Part shown: positions 1-40,136 of the stretch, in pieces
How the letters are laid out: every line of letters starts with the position of its first letter
How positions within the stretch are numbered: position 1 is the stretch's first letter
Source of the DNA: an uncultured Candidatus Saccharibacteria bacterium
GTDB lineage: Bacteria; Patescibacteriota; Minisyncoccia; Phycocordibacterales; DSPV01
DNA: 64,000 nt
Reading direction: 5' to 3'
NCBI GenBank assembly: GCA_964349135.1
Contig: CAYGFK010000001.1
Span: 10,717 to 74,716 of the forward strand
Notes under the pieces: generated by a model
What the model was told of the DNA's origin: nothing
The model's database searches: none
Seen by the model: only the letters and a program-made list of their open reading frames with translations
Position numbers and translations under genes: made by a program

Positions 1-2
1 CG

Positions 3-1130
3 GGAGATTTGGAACCACTTCTAACCGCTAAGAAACCTCCCGCATCGCTTACACTCGAATATCTTCGCGGAGAGAAACAGATTCCGATACCTGAAAAGAG
101 ACGAGAATCAGAGAAGGGAGCTCTTAAAATCCGTGGAGCGAAAATCTTTAACCTTAAGAATATAAATGTGGAGGTGCCACTTGGTAAACTTGTCTCAGTG
201 ACAGGTGTTTCGGGCTCCGGGAAATCTTCCCTTGTCTATGAGGTGCTCCATAAGAACCTTCTTGCGCGACTTGACCGTAAGTACCGTTCGAACGACACAT
301 TCAATTGCGCAAGTTTTACAGGGTCTGAATATCTCGGCCGGGCTATCTTGATAGACCAGTCGCCGATAGGCCGTACACCGCGTTCGAATCCCGCAACCTA
401 TACGGGAGCGTTTGCGTTCATTCGTGAGTTGTTTGCCGAGACATCGGAGGCCCGGGCACACGGGTGGGGCGCCAGCCGATTCTCCTTTAACGTGCCGACG
501 GCGCGTCGCGGGGGACGTTGTGAGGCCTGTGAAGGGAATGGTGAAATTGCCGTTGAAATGCACTTCTTGCCGACGGTGTACGTCACGTGCGAAGTTTGTG
601 GCGGGAAACGTTTTATGAAAGAGACGCTTGAGGTTACCTTTAAAAAGAAGAATATACATCAAGTTCTTGAAATGACTATCGAAGAGGCCATCGTATTTTT
701 CGAAGATATTCCTGCGATTTATGACCGTCTCAAGACGCTTGATGATGTGGGGCTCGGGTATTTGAAGCTTGGTCAGTCAGCGACGACGCTCTCCGGTGGA
801 GAAGCTCAGCGCGTGAAAATCGCGTCAGAGCTTTATCGTCCGCATCTGCAGAAGACCATCTATCTCCTTGATGAGCCGACTATAGGGTTGCATTATGAGG
901 ATGTTAAGAGACTCATTGAGATATTGCAGAAACTGGTTGACCGAGGAAACACGGTGGTGGTCATTGAACATAATATGGAGGTTATCAAGTCGTCTGATTA
1001 TCTCATTGATATCGGCCCCGAGGGAGGGGATGGCGGCGGCAAGGTTGTGGCAAAAGGTACACCTGAAGAAGTGGCGCAAACCGACACGCATACCGGTAAC
1101 TATCTTCGTAAGACTCTCCGAAAGAAATAA
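3..1130 (+). CDS. uvrA: Excinuclease ABC subunit A, C-terminal part (5' end lies outside the window)
   Basis: Second ABC ATPase domain: Walker A GVSGSGKSS, ABC signature LSGGEAQR, Walker B LLDEPT. C-terminal Zn-finger cysteines CEACEG...CEVCGG. The ORF runs from the window edge. Confidence 0.9.
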   Translation, partial: GDLEPLLTAKKPPASLTLEYLRGEKQIPIPEKRRESEKGALKIRGAKIFNLKNINVEVPLGKLVSVTGVSGSGKSSLVYEVLHKNLLARLDRKYRSNDTFNCASFTGSEYLGRAILIDQSPIGRTPRSNPATYTGAFAFIRELFAETSEARAHGWGASRFSFNVPTARRGGRCEACEGNGEIAVEMHFLPTVYVTCEVCGGKRFMKETLEVTFKKKNIHQVLEMTIEEAIVFFEDIPAIYDRLKTLDDVGLGYLKLGQSATTLSGGEAQRVKIASELYRPHLQKTIYLLDEPTIGLHYEDVKRLIEILQKLVDRGNTVVVIEHNMEVIKSSDYLIDIGPEGGDGGGKVVAKGTPEEVAQTDTHTGNYLRKTLRKK

Positions 1131-25647: not shown

Positions 25648-25716
25648 TCGTTACGCATCAGATTTCTTCGTGCAGGACTTCGCGTCTTGCCCTTTAGCCA
25701 TTCATCGAACCATTCT

Positions 25717-27417
25717 ATGTCATCACCAGTTGAACTCATTAAAGAGCGACTGAGCGTCACTGACGTCATCGGCTCGTATGTTCAACTGGAGAAGGCGGGC
25801 TCCAATCTTAAGGCGAAATGTCCGTTTCATAACGAAAAGACCCCGTCATTCTTCGTATCGCCGGCTCGTGGCAGTTATTACTGTTTTGGGTGCGGTGCGA
25901 AAGGGGATATCTTCTCATTTGTGCAGGCCTTTGAGGGTCTAGATTTCATGGGCGCGCTCAAATCACTCGGCACTCGGGCCGGTGTAGAGATTTCCCCTGA
26001 GGACCCGAAGGTTCGGAGCGGACGAGAGCGTCTTTTTCTGCTTCTTGAAACAGCAACAGCGTTCTTTGAAGCTGAGCTGAATAAAAATAAGGAGGCACGG
26101 GCGTATCTTACGAAACGAGGCCTTTCTGACGAGACGGTTCGCTCGTGGAGGATAGGGTTTGCTGAGGACGAGTGGCAGTCGTGTCTTGACTACTGCACCA
26201 CAAAAGGATTCTCACTTGATGAGCTCGAAAAAGCCGGACTTATCAAGCGCGAAGGAGGAAAGACGTATGACCGATTTCGTTCCCGTGTCATGTTTCCGAT
26301 AGTTGATGCGTCGGGACGGCCCGTTGCATTTTCCGGACGACTCTTTGGTAAAAAAGACGATAAGGCGCCTAAATATCTTAATAGCCCGGAAACACTGGTG
26401 TTCTCAAAGTCACGTATCTTATATGGTTTTGACAGGGCAAAGAATGAAATTCGCAGACTTGATTACACCATGCTTGTTGAAGGACAAATGGACCTCTTGA
26501 TGTGTCATCAGGCAGGTTTCAAGAATGCCGTTGCATCGTCGGGTACGTCGTTTACCGAAGAGCAGATTACCATTCTCAAGAGACTTTCGAAACGACTTTT
26601 GATGGTTTACGATGCAGATAAAGCGGGTGTTGCGGCGAGCGTTCGGAGTGCCTCTCTTGCCCTTGCGGAAGGTATGGAGGTTAAAGTTGCCGCTCTTCCG
26701 GAAGGGAAAGACCCTGCCGAACTTATCGTTCTAGATAAGGAAGGATTTAAGCAGGCACTCAAGAGCTCTCAGCACGTTATCGATTTTTATCTCGAAGCCA
26801 TTCTTAAGGAGGGTCTCGATGAGCGGTCGCTTCTCGGAGCACTTCGTATAAAACTTTTTCCGTATATTGCCGCCCTTGAATCGAGCGTTGAGCGTGATTA
26901 TTTTATCAAACGACTCGCAGAAAAGACCGGAATTCGCGAGGCCGCAATCAGAGAGGATTTGTCGAGTGTCGAGGTGGTGCGCGAGACGAAAGAAATGGTG
27001 CGCCCTTCAGTTTCACTCTCTCCTCGCCGAAACTTTTCAGAACGTCTATTAGTCGGGATTTGGCTTTGGCAGTCAGGGCAAAAGGAACCACAACTTGATG
27101 TCGCTACTTTCAGGAAAGAAGTTGAGCGTATCCTTGGAACAAAGAAGGGTGGAGAGATTTTTGAGGAGGCGAAACAGGTAAGTGACGAGCTTGTATATCA
27201 GGCCGAATCATACTATGGTGGCACACGCGACCTTGGCCGTGCGGTTGATGAGCTTCTCTCGATGCTTGAAGACGATTTCCTAAGTGACGAGATGACAACG
27301 ACGCTTCATGAACTTGCGCTTGCAAAGCAGAAGAAAGATATCCAAGAGGCGCACTCTTTGCAGACAACCTATCAAAAACTTGCCCGCCGTCGAGATGAGT
27401 TGCGGGGTAAGCGTTAG
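25717..27417 (+). CDS. dnaG: DNA primase
   Basis: CHC2 zinc finger CPFHNEKTPSF...YYCFGCGAKGD and a TOPRIM domain. Confidence 0.9.
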   Translation: MSSPVELIKERLSVTDVIGSYVQLEKAGSNLKAKCPFHNEKTPSFFVSPARGSYYCFGCGAKGDIFSFVQAFEGLDFMGALKSLGTRAGVEISPEDPKVRSGRERLFLLLETATAFFEAELNKNKEARAYLTKRGLSDETVRSWRIGFAEDEWQSCLDYCTTKGFSLDELEKAGLIKREGGKTYDRFRSRVMFPIVDASGRPVAFSGRLFGKKDDKAPKYLNSPETLVFSKSRILYGFDRAKNEIRRLDYTMLVEGQMDLLMCHQAGFKNAVASSGTSFTEEQITILKRLSKRLLMVYDADKAGVAASVRSASLALAEGMEVKVAALPEGKDPAELIVLDKEGFKQALKSSQHVIDFYLEAILKEGLDERSLLGALRIKLFPYIAALESSVERDYFIKRLAEKTGIREAAIREDLSSVEVVRETKEMVRPSVSLSPRRNFSERLLVGIWLWQSGQKEPQLDVATFRKEVERILGTKKGGEIFEEAKQVSDELVYQAESYYGGTRDLGRAVDELLSMLEDDFLSDEMTTTLHELALAKQKKDIQEAHSLQTTYQKLARRRDELRGKR

Positions 27418-27459
27418 ACAAGCCCCTTATTTATATTATAGGATAACCATAACGCCCAT

Positions 27460-28704
27460 ATGAAGAAAAAGAAGACGGTTTCGAAAAAGAAAACAAGTGG
27501 TACAAAACGTGCAAAGATGCATCCAAAGAGGAAGTCAGTTCGGTCTGCATCGAAGACGCATGTCAAGAAAGCTAAGAAAGGAGCAGTTTCAGGTAAATCG
27601 AATCTCCCGAAAGTATCCAAGAAATCACGTCTTCTTGAGACAAAAGTCGAAAAGCTCCTTGCTCGTGGAAAGGAGAAGGGATTCGTGACCTATGACGAAA
27701 TTTTGAAAGAATTCCCGACCATTGAGAATGATATTATTTTCCTTGAAGACCTCTATGTTCGTTTTAATGAAGCGGGTATCGATGTGCTTGAGGGTGGTGG
27801 CATGCTCGACCCGCATGTCGATGAGATAGTTGCGAAGCGGTCCGGTTACGGGCGGTCGGATTCTTCCTACGATTCCATCCAAATGTACCTCAAAGAGATT
27901 GGACAGTATCCTCTTATCAGTGCCGCTATGGAACGTGAACTCGCGAGACGTATCGAACAGGGGGACGAAGAGGCGAAGAATCTCCTCGCTCGTGCAAACT
28001 TGCGTCTTGTCGTGTCTATCGCCAAGAAATATGTAGGACGTTCTCCTGACCTCACACTCCTCGACCTCATTCAGGAAGGGAACCTCGGCCTTTTTAAGGC
28101 CGTTGATAAATTCGATTGGACAAAAGGGTACAAATTTTCGACGTACGCCACGTGGTGGATTCGACAGGCGATTACCCGCGCGCTCGCTGACCAGTCTCGC
28201 ACGATTCGCGTGCCGGTGCACATGGTAGAGACTATTGCAAAGTATAAGCAGGTTGTCCGCCGATTATCACAGGACCTTGGGCGCGACCCGCTTCCGGAAG
28301 AGGTCGCTATCGAGATGGGTATTGAGGTGCAGAAAGTGTATCAGATTGAAAAAATTGACCAGGATACCGTTTCGCTTGAAAGCCCTGTAGGGGATGACGG
28401 CGATGACGGAAAATCAACGCTCGGAGATTTTGTCTCCGATGATAAGATACTGTCGCCTGACCAGGAATCGTCACGACGCATTCTCTCTGACCAAGTAAAA
28501 GAAATCTTAAGAGAGCTCTCCGAGAAAGAACGGCGTATTCTTGAGATGCGACATGGGCTAGGCGAGTGGCAGGGAATTACCCATACACTTGAAGAAGTCG
28601 GCCAGAAGTTTGGTGTGACCCGCGAACGTATTCGCCAGATTGAAGCGAAGGCGCATGAAAAGATTCGCCAGCATGAGAAGGCAATGAAGCTCAAAAACTA
28701 CTAA
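27460..28704 (+). CDS. rpoD: Primary sigma factor (sigma-70 family) with a lysine-rich N-terminal extension
   Basis: Regions 1.2 to 4 are conserved (YLKEIGQYPLIS; DLIQEGNLGLFKAVDKFD; YATWWIRQAITRA; the region 4 HTH). The first ~60 aa are highly basic rather than an acidic region 1.1. Confidence 0.9.
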   Translation: MKKKKTVSKKKTSGTKRAKMHPKRKSVRSASKTHVKKAKKGAVSGKSNLPKVSKKSRLLETKVEKLLARGKEKGFVTYDEILKEFPTIENDIIFLEDLYVRFNEAGIDVLEGGGMLDPHVDEIVAKRSGYGRSDSSYDSIQMYLKEIGQYPLISAAMERELARRIEQGDEEAKNLLARANLRLVVSIAKKYVGRSPDLTLLDLIQEGNLGLFKAVDKFDWTKGYKFSTYATWWIRQAITRALADQSRTIRVPVHMVETIAKYKQVVRRLSQDLGRDPLPEEVAIEMGIEVQKVYQIEKIDQDTVSLESPVGDDGDDGKSTLGDFVSDDKILSPDQESSRRILSDQVKEILRELSEKERRILEMRHGLGEWQGITHTLEEVGQKFGVTRERIRQIEAKAHEKIRQHEKAMKLKNY

Positions 28705-34226: not shown

Positions 34227-35180
34227 TTACTTGAGAGGTAGAGCGTGAGTTACCAGGAAATCCCGAAGGGTTACGTCGCCCATGCCGAAGCCGACGGTGG
34301 GAACTGGCTCAGCGTCAAATAGTTCCATGAGGTTGTCATACCGACCCCCTCCGAAGAGTGAGCGACGGTTTTCTTCATGGGTGTCGAATACTTCGAATAC
34401 CATACCGGTATAGTAGTCGAATCCTCGAACAAGGGTCGGTTCATAGATGACGTTAGTGATACCTGCGGAGGTGAGTGCTTCAAGGACATCCGTTGGTCCG
34501 TTGCTTGCACTGAGCACGAACTCTTTGTTGGAGAACTTTGTCCATTCCGCGGTGAATTCCTCGTCGGTGATTTTGTTCTTCTTATCTATGAGTCGCATCG
34601 CTTCGGGTAGGGTTAGCGGGTCCTTGAGAAGTCCCGATATCTCCTTTTCGCTGTGTGCGCGGTTATTAATCTTGATTTGAAAATCCTGCTCCTTGGCACC
34701 AAACGCTTTCATAAGGTCGTAGGCGAGCTTTATGATTTCAACGTCGGCTTCTGTCCCTGCGATTCCCATGAGGTCGCAGTTGAGTTGCCAGTGTTCACGA
34801 CGTCGGCCGCGTTGAGGCCTCTCGTACCGGAAACAATTGGCGATGGTGAACCAGCGAAGAGGGAACTCTCTTTGGAGTTCTCGTCGTTTGGCGGCGACCA
34901 TACGAGCAAGACTCGGAGTCATTTCAGGTCTCAAGGCCACCTCACGGTCTCCTTTATCGCGGAAGAGGTACATTTGGTCGTTGACGATTTCGTCGCTTCC
35001 CTTGCGTCGGTAAAGTTCGGCGTACTCAAGAATCGATGAGCTGTACTCAGCGTAACCGGCTTTTTCGACCGTTTTTCGCCACGTAGAGAAGATATAGTTT
35101 TGGACTGCCATATCCTCGGGGTAAAAATCCCTAACGCCTTTATAGGGCTCTGTAGAAAGTTTATTTACTTTTTCTGACAT
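34227..35180 (-). CDS. hisS: Histidyl-tRNA synthetase catalytic core with no anticodon-binding domain (317 aa; HisZ-like architecture)
   Basis: GVRDFYPED, ALRPEMTPSLARMV, motif 2 FRYERPQRGRRREHWQ, motif 3 GGGRYDNL. The ORF ends right after motif 3 and the next gene is the unrelated exonuclease. Confidence 0.75.
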   Translation of the reverse strand: MSEKVNKLSTEPYKGVRDFYPEDMAVQNYIFSTWRKTVEKAGYAEYSSSILEYAELYRRKGSDEIVNDQMYLFRDKGDREVALRPEMTPSLARMVAAKRRELQREFPLRWFTIANCFRYERPQRGRRREHWQLNCDLMGIAGTEADVEIIKLAYDLMKAFGAKEQDFQIKINNRAHSEKEISGLLKDPLTLPEAMRLIDKKNKITDEEFTAEWTKFSNKEFVLSASNGPTDVLEALTSAGITNVIYEPTLVRGFDYYTGMVFEVFDTHEENRRSLFGGGRYDNLMELFDAEPVPTVGFGMGDVTLRDFLVTHALPLK

Positions 35181-36760: not shown

Positions 36761-37124
36761 TAGATACGATATGATTATTGTGATGCCAAAAGCAGAATTA
36801 GGAGAATTGGTGATGCGCCGAGTTCGGTTCATCTATCTTGTTCGCACACTGGTCACGCCACTTGTGGCTGAGGTCATTTCGCTTTCCGCCTGTGTCGGGG
36901 CATTTGTAGTGCTTGTTTCCTTTGAAGATGTGGTTGCTAATGCGCGTGCCACCGAATCGTTTTTGTCGCTCGTACAGTACGTGTTTTCTGCCGCGATGCA
37001 TACCGAGCTACTCATGCAGACCCTCTTTATTATCTTTATCGCCGTTTCAAGCTACTGTATGTATTCAATTATAAAGATGCCACGTCAGGAAAGCAGAACA
37101 TTCGTAGAATCGCAAATCGCTTAA
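36753..37124 (+). CDS. Putative membrane-bound anti-sigma factor (3 TM, 123 aa)
   Basis: Start overlaps the ECF sigma stop by 8 nt, which implies translational coupling. Hydrophobic helices present. No sequence homology is claimed. Confidence 0.4.
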   Translation: MNDRYDMIIVMPKAELGELVMRRVRFIYLVRTLVTPLVAEVISLSACVGAFVVLVSFEDVVANARATESFLSLVQYVFSAAMHTELLMQTLFIIFIAVSSYCMYSIIKMPRQESRTFVESQIA

Positions 37125-37444
37125 AGACGTCCACTGGACATAAGAAAGAAGAATCTCCGCATAGGCGGAGTTTTTATTTATCCGTTCCAGAGGTCGGTCC
37201 ACCAATCAAACGTGAGAAAAAGCAACACCGCTGCGGGAATATAGATGGGGGATAGGATGAGAAAAAGAATTCGTTTCCACATCATGGGATTAAAGAAGGC
37301 CGATACGTTCCTGAGGTGTGAGGGGGGGTGCTACAGCCTCGAGAAGAGAACGTACCGGCCAGGTAAGGGAACGAGTTGCTTGCGTGCGATGTGCGTTCCC
37401 TGTAAGAGAGAGAGTACTCTGAAGGTGTCTTTTCGTCAAGAATA

Positions 37445-37759
37445 TTATAGAGCGATAGTTACGAAGATGATGAAAGTAAAAAGGGCTAGAAAGGCGATGG
37501 TGTAGGCAAACATTTGTACGGCTTCAGCCGGTTTCTTTTCAAAGAAGAGCATGGTTGGTTTACCGAGTACCAGTGACCCGGTAATGGCGGCGGATGTAAC
37601 AAAGAGAAGCAACATGGCAAGCGGTGCAGCGAATGTGTCCGGTTTCCCTCCGAAGAATTTCTCCACATAAGACATAAAAACGGCGACTAAGGTAACGTAA
37701 ATAGCAGTGGCACCGGCATGTAACGCCGCACGTCTGATTAAATCATTTTTATGCTCCAT
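37445..37759 (-). CDS. Small membrane protein (104 aa, 3 TM)
   Basis: Hydropathy only. Confidence 0.35.
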   Translation of the reverse strand: MEHKNDLIRRAALHAGATAIYVTLVAVFMSYVEKFFGGKPDTFAAPLAMLLLFVTSAAITGSLVLGKPTMLFFEKKPAEAVQMFAYTIAFLALFTFIIFVTIAL

Positions 37760-37795
37760 GGCTCTAATATAACTCTTTTAAGTGTAAAAATCTTA

Positions 37796-38176
37796 CTATT
37801 TGTTAGTAAGCTTGGATATTCCTCTTTCAACTTCAATATGGCAATTCTTACAGAGAAGAATGCATTTTCGTGCTTCTTTGAGAATGCTTTTCCACGAATA
37901 ACTCAACCCCTTCACACTCAAAGAAAATTCTTTCTGTTTTCGGTTTAAGTGATGGAAATCAAGGGCGCCTGCATATTTTTTGTAACCACAAATTTGACAT
38001 TCCCCTCCGAACAAACTGACAAGTCTTTCTTTCTTTTTTCTCCTGTTATTAATAACCCATTCGGACGCGCACTTTCCGCATCGATAGGTCCCATCTTTCC
38101 TTGGAAAATGAGATGATTTCCCGTGATGTCGACAATGTTTAATCATGCGCAAATTATAACACTTGGTGTTAAGCAT
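37796..38176 (-). CDS. HNH endonuclease, free-standing
   Basis: C..C...HH...C..C.H core (CQICGY...FHHLNRK...CKNCH). Start set at MLNTK; the longer track start (38272) would overlap the tRNA 5' exon. Confidence 0.7.
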   Translation of the reverse strand: MLNTKCYNLRMIKHCRHHGKSSHFPRKDGTYRCGKCASEWVINNRRKKKERLVSLFGGECQICGYKKYAGALDFHHLNRKQKEFSLSVKGLSYSWKSILKEARKCILLCKNCHIEVERGISKLTNK

Positions 38177-38232
38177 CTGTAGGCACTGGACTTCATTGAT
38201 ACTCTGGAATAGAATTGTTGTGTTCGTTATAT

Positions 38233-38503
38233 TCCGGGATAGCTCAGCGGTAGAGCAGTCGCCTGTAAACATATTTGCAGCTTTTCACCGAAAGGTGGAT
38301 TGAAAAACTTCGGGATAACGGTGGAGCCCCTCTGGGGTAATACCGTGGGAACCCTTACTAATTAATTAGTTGGGGGCGCCGTAGAGACTAGATACCGAAG
38401 CACCTAAGGTTTTCATAACTATGGTGGTGATATAGTCCACGCCATTGGTAACAATGGATAACGTGTAAGCGATTGGTCGCAGGTTCGAATCCTGCTCCCG
38501 GAG
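38233..38503 (+). tRNA. tRNA-Asn(GUU) interrupted by a 199-nt group I intron (38267-38465) in the anticodon loop, between nt 35 and 36
   Basis: 5' exon TCCGGGATAGCTCAGCGGTAGAGCAGTCGCCTGT and 3' exon TAAGCGATTGGTCGCAGGTTCGAATCCTGCTCCCGGAG. Spliced product has loop CUGUUAA. Close to B. subtilis tRNA-Asn. The intron carries Azoarcus-like P7/P9 elements (GTAGAGACTAGA, CACCTAAGG, CTATGG, ATAGTCC) and ends in G. Confidence 0.8.
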
Positions 38504-38519
38504 TTGCCAAAATTAATAT

Positions 38520-38545
38520 GCCCCGCAAGGGGCGTTTTAATTTTG
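38520..38545 (+). terminator. Rho-independent terminator after the tRNA
   Basis: gccccGCAAggggc followed by GTTTTAATTTT. Confidence 0.6.
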
Positions 38546-38663
38546 TTGCAACTCCGAGGAGAGGACGCAAAAGTCTTTGCGTCCGTCAGGATTCGAAAGG
38601 GTCGTTGGGTTCCCGTTCGTGAAGCGAATGGGATACGACCACCTGCGACGGTAGTCGAGAATT

Positions 38664-38679
38664 CTCCTGCTCCCGGAGT
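38664..38679 (+). repeat. 16-nt direct repeat of the tRNA-Asn 3' end (TCCTGCTCCCGGAGTT; first copy 38490-38505)
   Basis: Exact match read from sequence. It lies in a 290-bp structured noncoding stretch with a GGACGCAAAAGTCTTTGCGTCC hairpin and two CAGGATTCGAAAG elements. Confidence 0.75.
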
Positions 38680-38771
38680 TAGAGTAAGTTTAGCCCCGTT
38701 GCGAGAGCAATGGGGATTTACTTATCTCTCTGCGGGGCAGGATTCGAAAGACGGAGAATACAGTCAACGTA

Positions 38772-38842
38772 TTGACCAAAAGTTCTAGATGTAGTACTAT
38801 ATTGCTAGTTCCAGAGTCACTCAAAACCTCAAAGAAAGGAAG
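38772..38842 (+). promoter_or_regulatory. Promoter (TTGACC-17-TACTAT) plus conserved leader motif, copy 4
   Basis: Leader cactCAAAACCTCAAAGAAAGGAAGtatcc then a TTG start at 38848. Confidence 0.55.
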
Positions 38843-38847
38843 TATCC

Positions 38848-39489
38848 TTGAAAACATACATATCGTTAGTGCTTGCGCTGTCAGTGTCGTTGTTGTTTGG
38901 CGACGATTCCGACAGAGTTTCAAGTCCAGGAATACTCTTGGGCTACAAAGGCGTCGGACTCGATGGCTACACGTTCAGCCATGATACGCACCCCAACGAC
39001 CCTTTCCTGATGAATTCAGGGCAACCGGGCTCAGCAGGGGAAACCAAACTCGATGACCCGTTGCACTTCTTGGCCGTTGGCCTGACGTATGACGTGCCAC
39101 TGGGTAAGTCATGGACCGTCGCCATAGGAGCTGGCGGTTTATTTATCCCAAACCGGGATGAGCATCAAAATGATAACGATACGCGCCCGGCAGAAAATGG
39201 CGCATTCGTATATTCTGAAGCAAATTTTGGCGTATTCGCGACGGTCGGCTTGTCGTATGATGTCACCAAACGTTGTTACGTTGGCATCGAGGGACAGGTT
39301 GCCGGAATCTTTGTCGAAAGCGGATGGGACCGTTTTAATTCGGATGAGAGAGTTCATTCGAGTACAGAATGGGTTCCGTCTATTGGACCAAAAATTGGTT
39401 ACTGGGTTAATGAACACTTTCTCATGGAGGTAGGCGTTCAGTTTGGCCACTCGGTTGGTGGGACGGTATCGCTCAGATATCGATTTTGA
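38848..39489 (+). CDS. Secreted OmpW-like 8-strand beta-barrel protein (213 aa, TTG start)
   Basis: N-terminal signal peptide MKTYISLVLALSVSLLFG. Alternating hydrophobic beta-strand pattern. C-terminus ...VSLRYRF matches the OmpW-family terminal GYRF/aromatic-end barrel signal. Confidence 0.5.
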   Translation: MKTYISLVLALSVSLLFGDDSDRVSSPGILLGYKGVGLDGYTFSHDTHPNDPFLMNSGQPGSAGETKLDDPLHFLAVGLTYDVPLGKSWTVAIGAGGLFIPNRDEHQNDNDTRPAENGAFVYSEANFGVFATVGLSYDVTKRCYVGIEGQVAGIFVESGWDRFNSDERVHSSTEWVPSIGPKIGYWVNEHFLMEVGVQFGHSVGGTVSLRYRF

Positions 39490-39504
39490 ACCTGTTACGA
39501 ACAA

Positions 39505-39540
39505 GCCCGAGACCTATGGTCTCGGGCTCTTTCTTTTCAT
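39505..39540 (+). terminator. Rho-independent terminator
   Basis: agcccgagaccTATGggtctcgggct followed by CTTTCTTTTC. Confidence 0.65.
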
Positions 39541-39587
39541 AAAGTGAAAAATGTAATACACTTTTCTCTTATAACGTCTTACATTCA

Positions 39588-39947
39588 ATGCATCGGACTA
39601 CCAGATACATAACGATTGGCACCGGCATCATTGCACCCCTGTCAGTCTCCGCACAAAATTACGATATCTCCACAATCGAAGGCATGGTATCTGCCGTTTC
39701 CGGAATCATTAACACAATATTTCCGGCACTTACGGCTCTCGCCGTATTCATGATAGCGTGGGCGATATTTAGCTTCATTATAAACGCAGGGGACTCGGAG
39801 AAACGGAAGCAAGGATTGATGCACATCATATGGACGCTTATAGGTGTATTTCTCCTTTTTTCCATTTGGGGCCTCGTGAACATCTTGAAAAATACGTTTA
39901 CTCTAGACACAACGCCTCCTCCGCTTCCCACAACGCTCATTCCGTAG
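39588..39947 (+). CDS. Small secreted two-TM protein with a Pro/Thr-rich C-terminus (VirB2/TrbC-pilin-like topology)
   Basis: Signal-like N-terminus ending SVSAQ, two long hydrophobic helices separated by the NAGDSEKRKQG loop, and a TTPPPLPTTLIP tail. Confidence 0.35.
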   Translation: MHRTTRYITIGTGIIAPLSVSAQNYDISTIEGMVSAVSGIINTIFPALTALAVFMIAWAIFSFIINAGDSEKRKQGLMHIIWTLIGVFLLFSIWGLVNILKNTFTLDTTPPPLPTTLIP

Positions 39948-40136
39948 CCGATTCTTATTGTCGAGAGTACTTAGTAATTCGTGACCGAGTCTTGTTCCCG
40001 GGGAGGTAGGGACATAGTGAAAGATGAGAGATATAAAGAGTTCTAATTTGATTTTTCCGTGATTATGTTATATAAATCGTAATAGAGTTCTATAAAAGAA
40101 GGGAGGTGAATTAGTATTAAAAGTACCACTTTTAGT

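Follow-up and report, generated by a model that had tools for sequence, protein, structure and literature searches.

A predicted self-splicing group I intron within the anticodon of a tRNA-Asn(GUU) gene from an uncultured Candidatus Saccharibacteria bacterium

Introduction

Group I introns in the tRNA genes of Patescibacteria were described by Nakagawa, Amikura, Omae and Suzuki (mSystems 2026, PMC13011429; preprint July 2025, 10.1101/2025.07.03.662931). [quoted passage not shown] Standard tools often missed these genes or labelled them Thr(UGU) (PMC13011429). Accurate self-splicing at 35/36 was obtained in vitro with the tRNA-Asn intron of GCA_016700035.1 and the tRNA-Asp intron of GCA_001029755.1, the ligated exons were sequenced, and a C in place of the terminal G prevented the exons from being ligated (PMC13011429). 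Subgroup IA was assigned to 25 of 28 introns at 35/36 and subgroup IC to none of the Patescibacteria tRNA introns (PMC13011429). In most of the tRNA-Asn introns in Table S3 of that study an additional hairpin separates P7 from P3'; members without the hairpin are GCA_030583765.1 (Asn), GCA_023898525.1 (Asp) and GCA_016699995.1 (Tyr) (PMC13011429). HNH genes were reported in four tRNA-Asn introns (PMC13011429), and limited horizontal transfer of tRNA introns was inferred by the authors because most introns lack endonuclease genes.

Two further bodies of work bear on the locus described here. The Azoarcus intron consists of helices P1-P9 and P9.0 and lacks P5abc and P7.1/7.2 (PMC13168695). Free-standing endonucleases and ORF-less introns are known to be joined by two routes, collaborative homing and endonuclease-gene invasion (PMC3984707). 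Collaborative examples are F-CphI, encoded beside the cyanophage psbA intron, and T4 mobE with I-TevIII (PMC3984707, PMC2790892, PMC6083498).

The window analysed here is a 64,000-nt (64-kb) stretch of contig CAYGFK010000001.1 from assembly GCA_964349135.1. Its tRNA-Asn(GUU) gene is split within the anticodon by a 199-nt group I intron. The intron class was published in 2025-2026, and the locus is an additional example of that class, not a discovery. Host tRNA, insertion site, splice-site rules and invisibility to default tools are common to the window and the published 35/36 introns. HNH genes are found only inside introns in PMC13011429, whereas in the window the HNH gene lies outside the intron and adjoins the tRNA gene.

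Methods

All coordinates are given on the window, and adding 38266 to the number of an intron nucleotide gives its window position. Relatives were collected by pattern scans of public collections, the pattern consisting of the conserved core, then G|TAA, then a T-loop. The genome collection scan gave at least 119 loci; from IMG/VR one pattern retrieved 50 stretches and a second 107. For validation, exon boundaries were rebuilt, the sequences were spliced in silico and ARAGORN was rerun. The pattern limited the spacing from AGACTA to ATAGTC to 55 nt. The P7.1-bearing type, which is dominant in the published set, was excluded by this ceiling, and the locus counts are therefore lower bounds biased towards the intron type of the window. 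Fourteen Collinsella matches in the genome scan were rejected as false positives, consisting of a tRNA 3'-half repeat after chance matches to AGACTA/ATAGTC.

Covariation was scored on the window intron and its 19 nearest relatives in a plain MAFFT alignment. For nhmmer, a lineage profile was built from the 19 relatives with the window left out.

Detection and layout of the split gene

ARAGORN without -i returned no tRNA across the whole 64-kb window, and Rfam at gathering thresholds reported nothing over the same 64 kb. Both blanks were false negatives, overturned by ARAGORN in intron mode and by cmscan on a restricted region. In intron mode ARAGORN called tRNA-Asn(gtt) i(36,199), the sole tRNA that this mode found in the 64 kb, and the form spliced in silico was called as an ordinary tRNA-Asn. 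The Rfam check advised by the first-pass annotation, when run on 38000-38800, gave Intron_gpI (RF00028) at 50.8 bits (cut-off 50) with an E-value of 7.1e-12. The alignment spanned the full model, positions 1-253, and was seen solely when the short region was searched. With default ARAGORN and long-sequence Rfam both blind to it, the genome would wrongly seem to be without tRNA-Asn. That default pipelines miss such genes is thus shown once more here, and false absences of this kind affect completeness estimates for small-genome bacteria. ARAGORN and tFind often give a Thr boundary shifted by 2 nt for such genes.

The coordinates of the features are collected in Table 1. Exon 1 supplies the acceptor 5' strand, the D arm, the 5' strand of the anticodon stem and C32 U33 G34 U35, ending in ...GCCTGT. 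The intron starts with AAACAT and ends with ACGTG. Exon 2 starts with TAAGCG and supplies U36 A37 A38, the 3' strand of the anticodon stem, the variable loop, the T arm, the acceptor 3' strand and, as its final base, the discriminator G73; CCA is not encoded. When joined in silico the exons gave a clean tRNA-Asn(GUU) cloverleaf with the anticodon loop CUGUUAA (CTGTTAA in DNA). The first-pass annotation had placed the tRNA halves 199 nt apart, with U closing the 5' exon, G closing the intron and the loop CUGUUAA restored by joining at 35/36; all of this was borne out by in silico splicing and ARAGORN -i. The strings it had singled out as core (GTAGAGACTAGA, CACCTAAGG, CTATGG and ATAGTCC) all fall within 38381-38439.

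The promoter-like element, a weak candidate with 9 of 12 consensus matches, lies upstream of the tRNA gene and stops ~18 nt short of it; four such sites were counted in the region against 2.0 expected. The terminator-like hairpin was also picked up as a long inverted repeat.

Table 1. Positions of the split tRNA-Asn gene, its intron and neighbouring elements in the window
Feature	Window position	Intron nt	Strand	Basis or remark
HNH endonuclease gene, free-standing, divergent from tRNA	37796-38146		-	family residues, Pfam
Promoter-like element	38187-38215		+	TGGACT, 17-nt spacer, TAGAAT; consensus scan
tRNA-Asn exon 1	38233-38266		+	sequence reading, ARAGORN -i
P1 hairpin	38263-38280		+	Rfam alignment, MFE fold
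Group I intron, 199 nt, without ORF	38267-38465	1-199	+	RF00028, ARAGORN -i, covariation
P2, GAAA tetraloop L2	38285-38289 with 38294-38298	19-23/28-32	+	covariation
P3 5' strand CUUCGG	38308-38313	42-47	+	pairs with 38395-38400
P4	38318-38322 with 38342-38346	52-56/76-80	+	encloses P5
P5	38326-38330 with 38334-38338	60-64/68-72	+	75% paired, 3 covarying pairs
P6/P6a/P6b stem-loop	38347-38380	81-114	+	Rfam alignment, MFE fold
P7 5' strand G-A-GACUA	38384-38390	118, 120-124 (A119 bulged)	+	pairs with 38433-38438
P3 3' strand CCGAAG	38395-38400	129-134	+	covariation
P8 with presumed 11-nt GAAA-tetraloop receptor motif CCUAAG...UAUGG	38401-38426	135-160	+	sequence reading
P7 3' strand UAGUCC	38433-38438	167-172	+	Rfam alignment, covariation
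P9.0	38439-38441 with 38462-38464	173-175/196-198	+	encloses P9; 83% paired
P9, GUAA tetraloop	38442-38447 with 38452-38457	176-181/186-191	+	72% paired
Terminal guanosine (omega-G), 3' splice site	38465	199	+	
tRNA-Asn exon 2	38466-38503		+	sequence reading, ARAGORN -i
Intrinsic-terminator-like hairpin (GCCCCGCAAGGGGC) with T-rich tail	38518-38545 (hairpin 38518-38535)		+	

The split tRNA gene is neither a chance match nor an assembly artefact. The core-plus-T-loop pattern had a single match in the window and no match in any of 100 shuffles. The fold of minimum free energy (MFE) for the pre-tRNA had -100.6 kcal/mol (z = -4.2) and, made independently of the helix scheme, recovered every helix apart from the P7 pseudoknot. 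The window comes from a metagenome assembly, in which a tRNA gene might be artificially fused to intron DNA of another organism; virtually no weight can be given to such a chimera here. An exact copy of 38233-38503 is present in a separate, independent ENA assembly and one Logan contig extends to exon 1, the tRNA halves on either side of the insert fit each other perfectly, and the arrangement recurs at no fewer than 98 other loci. A megablast search with 37000-40000 found nothing in the phage collection.

Structure and covariation of the intron

In P1, exon CUGU and intron AAA (38263-38269) pair with UUUGCAG (38274-38280, intron nt 8-14) across the loop L1, CAUA (38270-38273), and U35 (38266) forms the wobble pair of the 5' splice site with G 38277 (intron G11). 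The guide GCAG, proposed as a candidate in the first-pass annotation, occupies 38277-38280 (intron nt 11-14). It was invariant in 20 of 20 relatives and is absent from the search pattern. The first intron pair of P1 covaries, being GC in 9 sequences, CG in 6, AU in 4 and UG in 1.

When the helix scheme was laid on the alignment, 85.3% of cells paired, against 31-44% with the partners slid. Both sides were altered in 35 of the 63 pairs. The covariation score was 0.347 compared with 0.153 in shuffles, and 0 of 500 shuffles reached 0.347. Covariation was found in P2, P3, P5, P8, P9 and P9.0 and in one pair of P4. All five pairs of P2 were changed on both sides (92.8% of cells paired), and five of the six P3 pairs covaried (97.5% paired). 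P4 was 97% paired, its covarying pair being an A-U to U-A swap in 5 sequences. The outer helix of P8 was 98.8% paired with 3 covarying pairs, and covarying pairs were present in both P9.0 and P9, for which the MFE and centroid folds concur. The P6 region was 73% paired and is variable in length among relatives. P7, the guanosine-binding helix, was 100% paired and invariant in the 20 sequences; this invariance is partly an effect of collection, because both P7 strands stood in the search pattern. The gap between P7 and P3' is only 4 nt (38391-38394). P10 is weak, just 2 pairs being possible between UAA of the 3' exon and the guide.

The CCUAAG and UAUGG strands of P8 are taken by us to be an 11-nt GAAA-tetraloop receptor. 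Two tertiary contacts would probably clamp the fold, one between L2 GAAA and the P8 receptor and the other between L9 GUAA and the C:G-rich P5.

Isotype of the host tRNA

The exons can also be read as tRNA-Thr(UGU) with the intron at 33/34 and the boundaries shifted by 2 nt. In this reading ...CCU closes the 5' exon, G 38463 is the last intron base and UGUAAGCG opens the 3' exon; these boundaries likewise yield a 7-nt loop, CUUGUAA, and again put U directly ahead of the intron and G at the intron end. Thr(tgt) was also the label given by ARAGORN -i to 35 of the 86 validated genome loci. The Asn and Thr isotypes were not resolved when the tRNA body, its anticodon loop masked, was compared by BLAST with 683 intron-less tRNAs, and this comparison was replaced by a test of the first acceptor pair together with the discriminator base. 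The U1-A72 pair and G73 of the window tRNA were found in 0 of 68 intron-less Thr tRNAs from the collected loci; in the intron-less Asn tRNAs from the same loci they occurred in 11 of the 22 that could be parsed and formed the commonest Asn type. At the Thr boundary U33 would form a Watson-Crick pair with A 38279, whereas the pair used at group I splice sites is a U•G wobble, and this wobble arises only from the 35/36 boundary. ARAGORN called the window locus itself Asn, and the sequenced products of relatives spliced in vitro show excision at 35/36 (PMC13011429). The Thr reading thus has a very slim chance of being correct.

Self-splicing

The locus is very probably a functional tRNA-Asn(GUU) gene carrying an ORF-less self-splicing group I intron between U35 and U36. 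The in silico evidence covers the anatomy, the compensatory changes in the helices, the precise exon-intron borders and the assignment of the tRNA body to Asn, and self-splicing of the window's intron is considered likely. Within the 64 kb inspected no second tRNA was called, and the gene is presumably the only tRNA-Asn gene of the genome.

In the proposed pathway a single precursor would be transcribed between the candidate promoter and the terminator hairpin, and the intron would fold into P1-P9 and P9.0, probably held by the L2/P8 and L9/P5 contacts. The guide 5'-UUUGCAG would pair with exon CUGU and place U35 in the U•G wobble. An external guanosine bound in P7 could then attack after U35, after which the terminal G would occupy the guanosine site and the released 3'-OH of U35 would attack before U36 (38466). 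Ligation of the exons would give the loop CUGUUAA and set the intron free, and RNase P, 3' trimming and CCA addition would complete the tRNA.

One counterpoint to functional self-splicing is the RF00028 score, which lies barely above the cut-off (50.8 against 50). Together with the weak P10 and the inspectable genome portion of 64 kb, this borderline score could be read as the mark of a disabled pseudogene, in which a decayed intron no longer splices and a second, intact tRNA-Asn elsewhere serves the cell. All core helices are intact, however, and are kept by compensatory changes in relatives, the guide, splice-site U and terminal G are all canonical, and the exons give a perfect cloverleaf. 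A pseudogene is very improbable.

The intron may instead be genuine and need a protein helper in vivo, for which a chaperone, or the neighbouring HNH protein in the role of a maturase, would be candidates. Some group I introns do need maturases; the ribozyme is small, P5 is short, P10 is weak and an HNH gene lies 87 nt upstream. Minimal tRNA introns of similar size, for example those of Azoarcus and Anabaena, nevertheless self-splice efficiently, and maturase activity is to our knowledge a property of LAGLIDADG proteins and not of HNH proteins. In most relatives the vicinity contains no HNH gene. Self-splicing free of protein was seen both for a 196-nt tRNA-Asp intron that lacks P7.1 and for a tRNA-Asn intron (PMC13011429). 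Dependence on a helper is accordingly judged unlikely.

Relatives of the intron

Splicing in silico gave a clean tRNA-Asn(GUU) at 98 or more loci besides the window, namely at least 86 species-level genomes and at least 12 viral contigs. In all 99 validated loci, window included, the intron ends in G and the 5' exon in CTGT. The arrangement is far commoner than the 28 complete-genome cases reported to date. An Asn host had been described as uncommon in the first-pass annotation; this view is contradicted by the 15 tRNA-Asn genes among the 22 intron-containing tRNA genes of Patescibacteria (PMC13011429) and by the genomes and viral contigs collected here, which make an Asn host not rare.

The 86 genomes listed are labelled as Patescibacteria (39), Omnitrophota (11), Planctomycetes (6), DPANN archaea (5), Limnocylindria (4) and others, and a further 11 carry the labels Gammaproteobacteria or Pseudomonadales, which are third-party labels and may be unreliable. 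The arrangement is also present in contigs carrying clearly archaeal genes.

Against the lineage profile the window intron scored 134 bits. Closely similar scores were given by the published tRNA-Asn intron of GCA_030583765.1 (138.5 bits) and by the hairpin-less tRNA-Asp (127 bits) and tRNA-Tyr (124.5 bits) introns. Hairpin-bearing tRNA-Asn introns, which are labelled IA or are of P7.1 type and probably IA, aligned over their full length at 40-63 bits. Only the core was aligned in Arg and Leu introns labelled IC3 (24-32 bits), in a Phe intron labelled IA3 (19 bits) and in the Azoarcus intron (18.5 bits, a provisional score on an approximate sequence). The core strings GGGATAACGGTG ... AATACCGTGGGAAC ... 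CCGTAGAGACTAGATACC ... GATATAGTCCACGCC are common to the window and the published hairpin-less lineage of Patescibacteria, to which the window intron is assigned on these sequence comparisons. Over aligned positions it is 76% identical to its nearest published member, GCA_030583765.1, and ~75% identical to the nearest species-level genome among the loci listed (L260); at these identities it is a new sequence. The intron of GCA_016700035.1 that was spliced in vitro shares only 64% identity with the window intron and bears an additional hairpin following P7.

The first-pass annotation had likened the intron to the IC3 intron of Azoarcus. In size (~200 nt) and location in the anticodon loop the window intron resembles those of Azoarcus BH72 pre-tRNA-Ile(CAU) and cyanobacterial tRNA-Leu(UAA). 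It has the minimal IC3-type architecture, with P2 and P9.0 present and no P2.1, P5abc or P7.1/7.2, and it shares with Azoarcus and IC3 introns the helix set, the L2 GAAA loop, the 11-nt P8 receptor (CCUAAG/UAUGG) and a P9 capped by a GNRA loop. The universal P7/J8-7 core is likewise shared, and the core strings GUAGAGACUAGA and AUAGUCC are nearly identical. The J3/4-P4 and P6 sequences differ, as do the host tRNA and the site, which is 35/36 in the window, 34/35 in tRNA-Leu introns and 36/37 in the Azoarcus tRNA-Ile intron. The likeness stands for helix set, L2, P8 receptor and core; it fails for closest kinship, since the 124-138 bits of the hairpin-less lineage compare with 18-32 bits for Azoarcus and the IC3-labelled introns, which score below even the P7.1-type Asn introns. 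Judged by sequence, the resemblance to Azoarcus is confined to minimal architecture and universal core and does not mark the closest relationship.

The neighbouring HNH endonuclease gene

The listed ORF of the HNH gene extends over 37796-38272 and overlaps exon 1. Conservation begins near Met43 (38146), so the gene probably stops 87 nt short of the tRNA gene. The HNH motif is intact (CxxC ... HH ... N ... CxxCH), and 23 of 23 invariant family residues are present, CxxC, HH and NCH among them. The Pfam model AI2M-like_HNH gave an E-value of 5e-4, below threshold, and the Pfam HNH models were sub-threshold.

Homologues are located inside the intron at 15 of the 99 listed tRNA-Asn-intron loci, always in L1 ahead of the guide, and four of these introns (L176, L196, L197 and L207) are of the window's own lineage. 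At ~13 loci besides the window an HNH gene lies ~35-315 bp from a tRNA gene with an ORF-less intron; only 3 matches in the 99 listed loci were farther off. The family has at least 533 members in IMG/VR. Among the best 80 IMG/VR loci the nearest detected neighbour is a tRNA gene in 75, within 265 bp in 73, and this neighbour is tRNA-Asn(gtt), nearly always intron-less, in 41 of the 75. The linkage of the HNH family to the intron and tRNA-Asn locus is non-random.

The occurrence of the family within or beside tRNA-Asn in bacteria, DPANN archaea and phages suggests endonuclease-assisted mobility. The HNH gene most likely encodes a homing endonuclease that spreads, or formerly spread, the intron and the tRNA locus. 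The linkage fits the routes of collaborative homing and endonuclease-gene invasion. T4 SegB is a free-standing homing endonuclease encoded in a tRNA region. A point of likeness to F-CphI, mobE and SegB is that homologues of the window family occur inside the same intron (L1) in other genomes; a point of difference is that its host in the window is a bacterial chromosome and not a phage.

The intron and the HNH gene might form a collaborative-homing pair, the HNH lineage being dedicated to tRNA-Asn(GUU) and shuttling between a place beside the gene, L1 and phage tRNA arrays, and carrying the 35/36 intron among phages, Patescibacteria, other bacterial phyla and DPANN archaea. The chances of this extended reading are put a little short of even. 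If true, it contradicts the published inference of limited horizontal transfer of tRNA introns. Many phage homologues lie beside intron-less tRNA-Asn genes, so a target other than the site of intron insertion is conceivable. Should the endonuclease target intron-less tRNA-Asn genes, the spread of ORF-less introns and their persistence in streamlined genomes would be explained. Only the HNH linkage and the archaeal cases add to what the consulted literature reports, and they lie mostly outside the intron finding itself.

Genomic context

No rRNA gene was found in the 64-kb window. A T4SS-pilin gene is present, and the housekeeping genes are compact, with product lengths of 1082 aa for rpoB, 1253 aa for rpoC, 1086 aa for dnaE, 752 aa for SMC and 414 aa for rpoD. 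Together with the contig matches below, this gene content is consistent with a Patescibacteria chromosome, probably a Paceibacteria-like one. The best tblastn matches of the window proteins were to CPR-labelled contigs, among loci that were selected by the pattern and of which 39 of 86 are labelled Patescibacteria/CPR.

HNH gene beside the tRNA and its relatives

As listed in the table, the HNH ORF overlaps exon 1 of the tRNA-Asn gene on the opposite strand; the likely start of the gene is Met43, at 38146. Relatives in other genomes and in phages are located either in loop L1 (the P1 loop) of related tRNA-Asn introns or adjoining tRNA-Asn genes. At least 533 relatives were found in IMG/VR viral contigs, and neighbours were examined in the best 80 loci (L272-L351). 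A tRNA gene was the nearest detected neighbour of the HNH gene in 75 of these 80, at a distance of ≤265 bp in 73 of the 75. The nearest tRNA was most often Asn(gtt) (41 loci), followed by Ile (9) and Arg (8), and nearly all of the 41 tRNA-Asn(gtt) genes were without an intron. The family looks like a homing endonuclease lineage tied to the tRNA genes of phage tRNA arrays.

Introns in other tRNA genes

Group I introns at position 35/36 of tRNA-Asn(GUU) were also located in five DPANN-labelled contigs, L188 (93-621, minus strand), L154, L158, L215 and L249, in all of which the acceptor pair of the tRNA is G1-C72, of archaeal type. The Rfam group I intron model RF00028 scored 82-97 bits in L188, L249, L154 and L215, and no match to it was found in L158 at E ≤ 0.001. 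Three of the five introns contain the ORF of this HNH family. The L188 contig also codes for TBP, a protein of KH/Pno1-like type and MCM, whose winged-helix domain is archaeal. A survey of group I introns in archaea, published in 2018, retained 39, every one in an rRNA gene (PMC6125680).

Viral-contig tRNA genes of many isotypes were found with ARAGORN -i to carry introns of >100 nt (IMG/VR L005-L152), presumed to be group I. Besides Leu(UAA), Met(CAU) and Arg(UCU), the isotypes include Gln(UUG), Lys(UUU), Glu(UUC), Thr and Tyr, and there are several genes for tRNA(UCA). The last were named 'SeC' by ARAGORN (L019, L022, L027, L046, L052, L053, L091) and may be opal-suppressor tRNAs.

Matches in Collinsella (L160, L179, L180, L192, L205, L208, L218, L219 and others) were rejected as introns, being a repeat of a tRNA 3' half that resembles an attachment site, with AGACTA and ATAGTC standing ahead of it by chance.

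Isotype assignment

Among the genome-contig matches listed (L153-L271), 86 loci gave a clean tRNA-Asn(GUU) after in-silico splicing. ARAGORN -i called Asn(gtt) in just 29 of these and Thr(tgt) in 35, the other calls being Asp, Tyr or His. The published 2-nt boundary miscall, by which Asn genes split at 35/36 are read as Thr(UGU) (PMC13011429), is thus reproduced on a larger scale.

Genome neighbourhood

In many CPR loci (for example L260, L209, L255, L266, L184 and L176) the intron-bearing tRNA-Asn gene lies 1-2 kb or less downstream of dnaG-rpoD. In the window, unlike these, dnaG-rpoD (25687-28704) is ∼10 kb upstream, with UvrD, DsbA, BacA, exonuclease, HisRS and sigma-factor genes between. 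Elsewhere in the window, the fusion of HTH_3 with an EPSP-synthase/MurA-type domain is unusual.

Protein-coding features of the window
Feature	Length	Position	Strand	Remarks
HNH endonuclease ORF		37796-38272	-	Intact; directly upstream of the intron-bearing tRNA-Asn gene, divergent
Histidyl-tRNA-synthetase-like protein	317 aa (short)	34227-35180	-	Class II core only
RRM_1 RNA-binding protein	90 aa	35346-35618	+	Few kb upstream of the tRNA-Asn gene
HTH_3 + EPSP-synthase/MurA ORF	508 aa	52095-53621	-	HTH_3 (Xre-type) N-terminal; EPSP-synthase/MurA-type domain full-length
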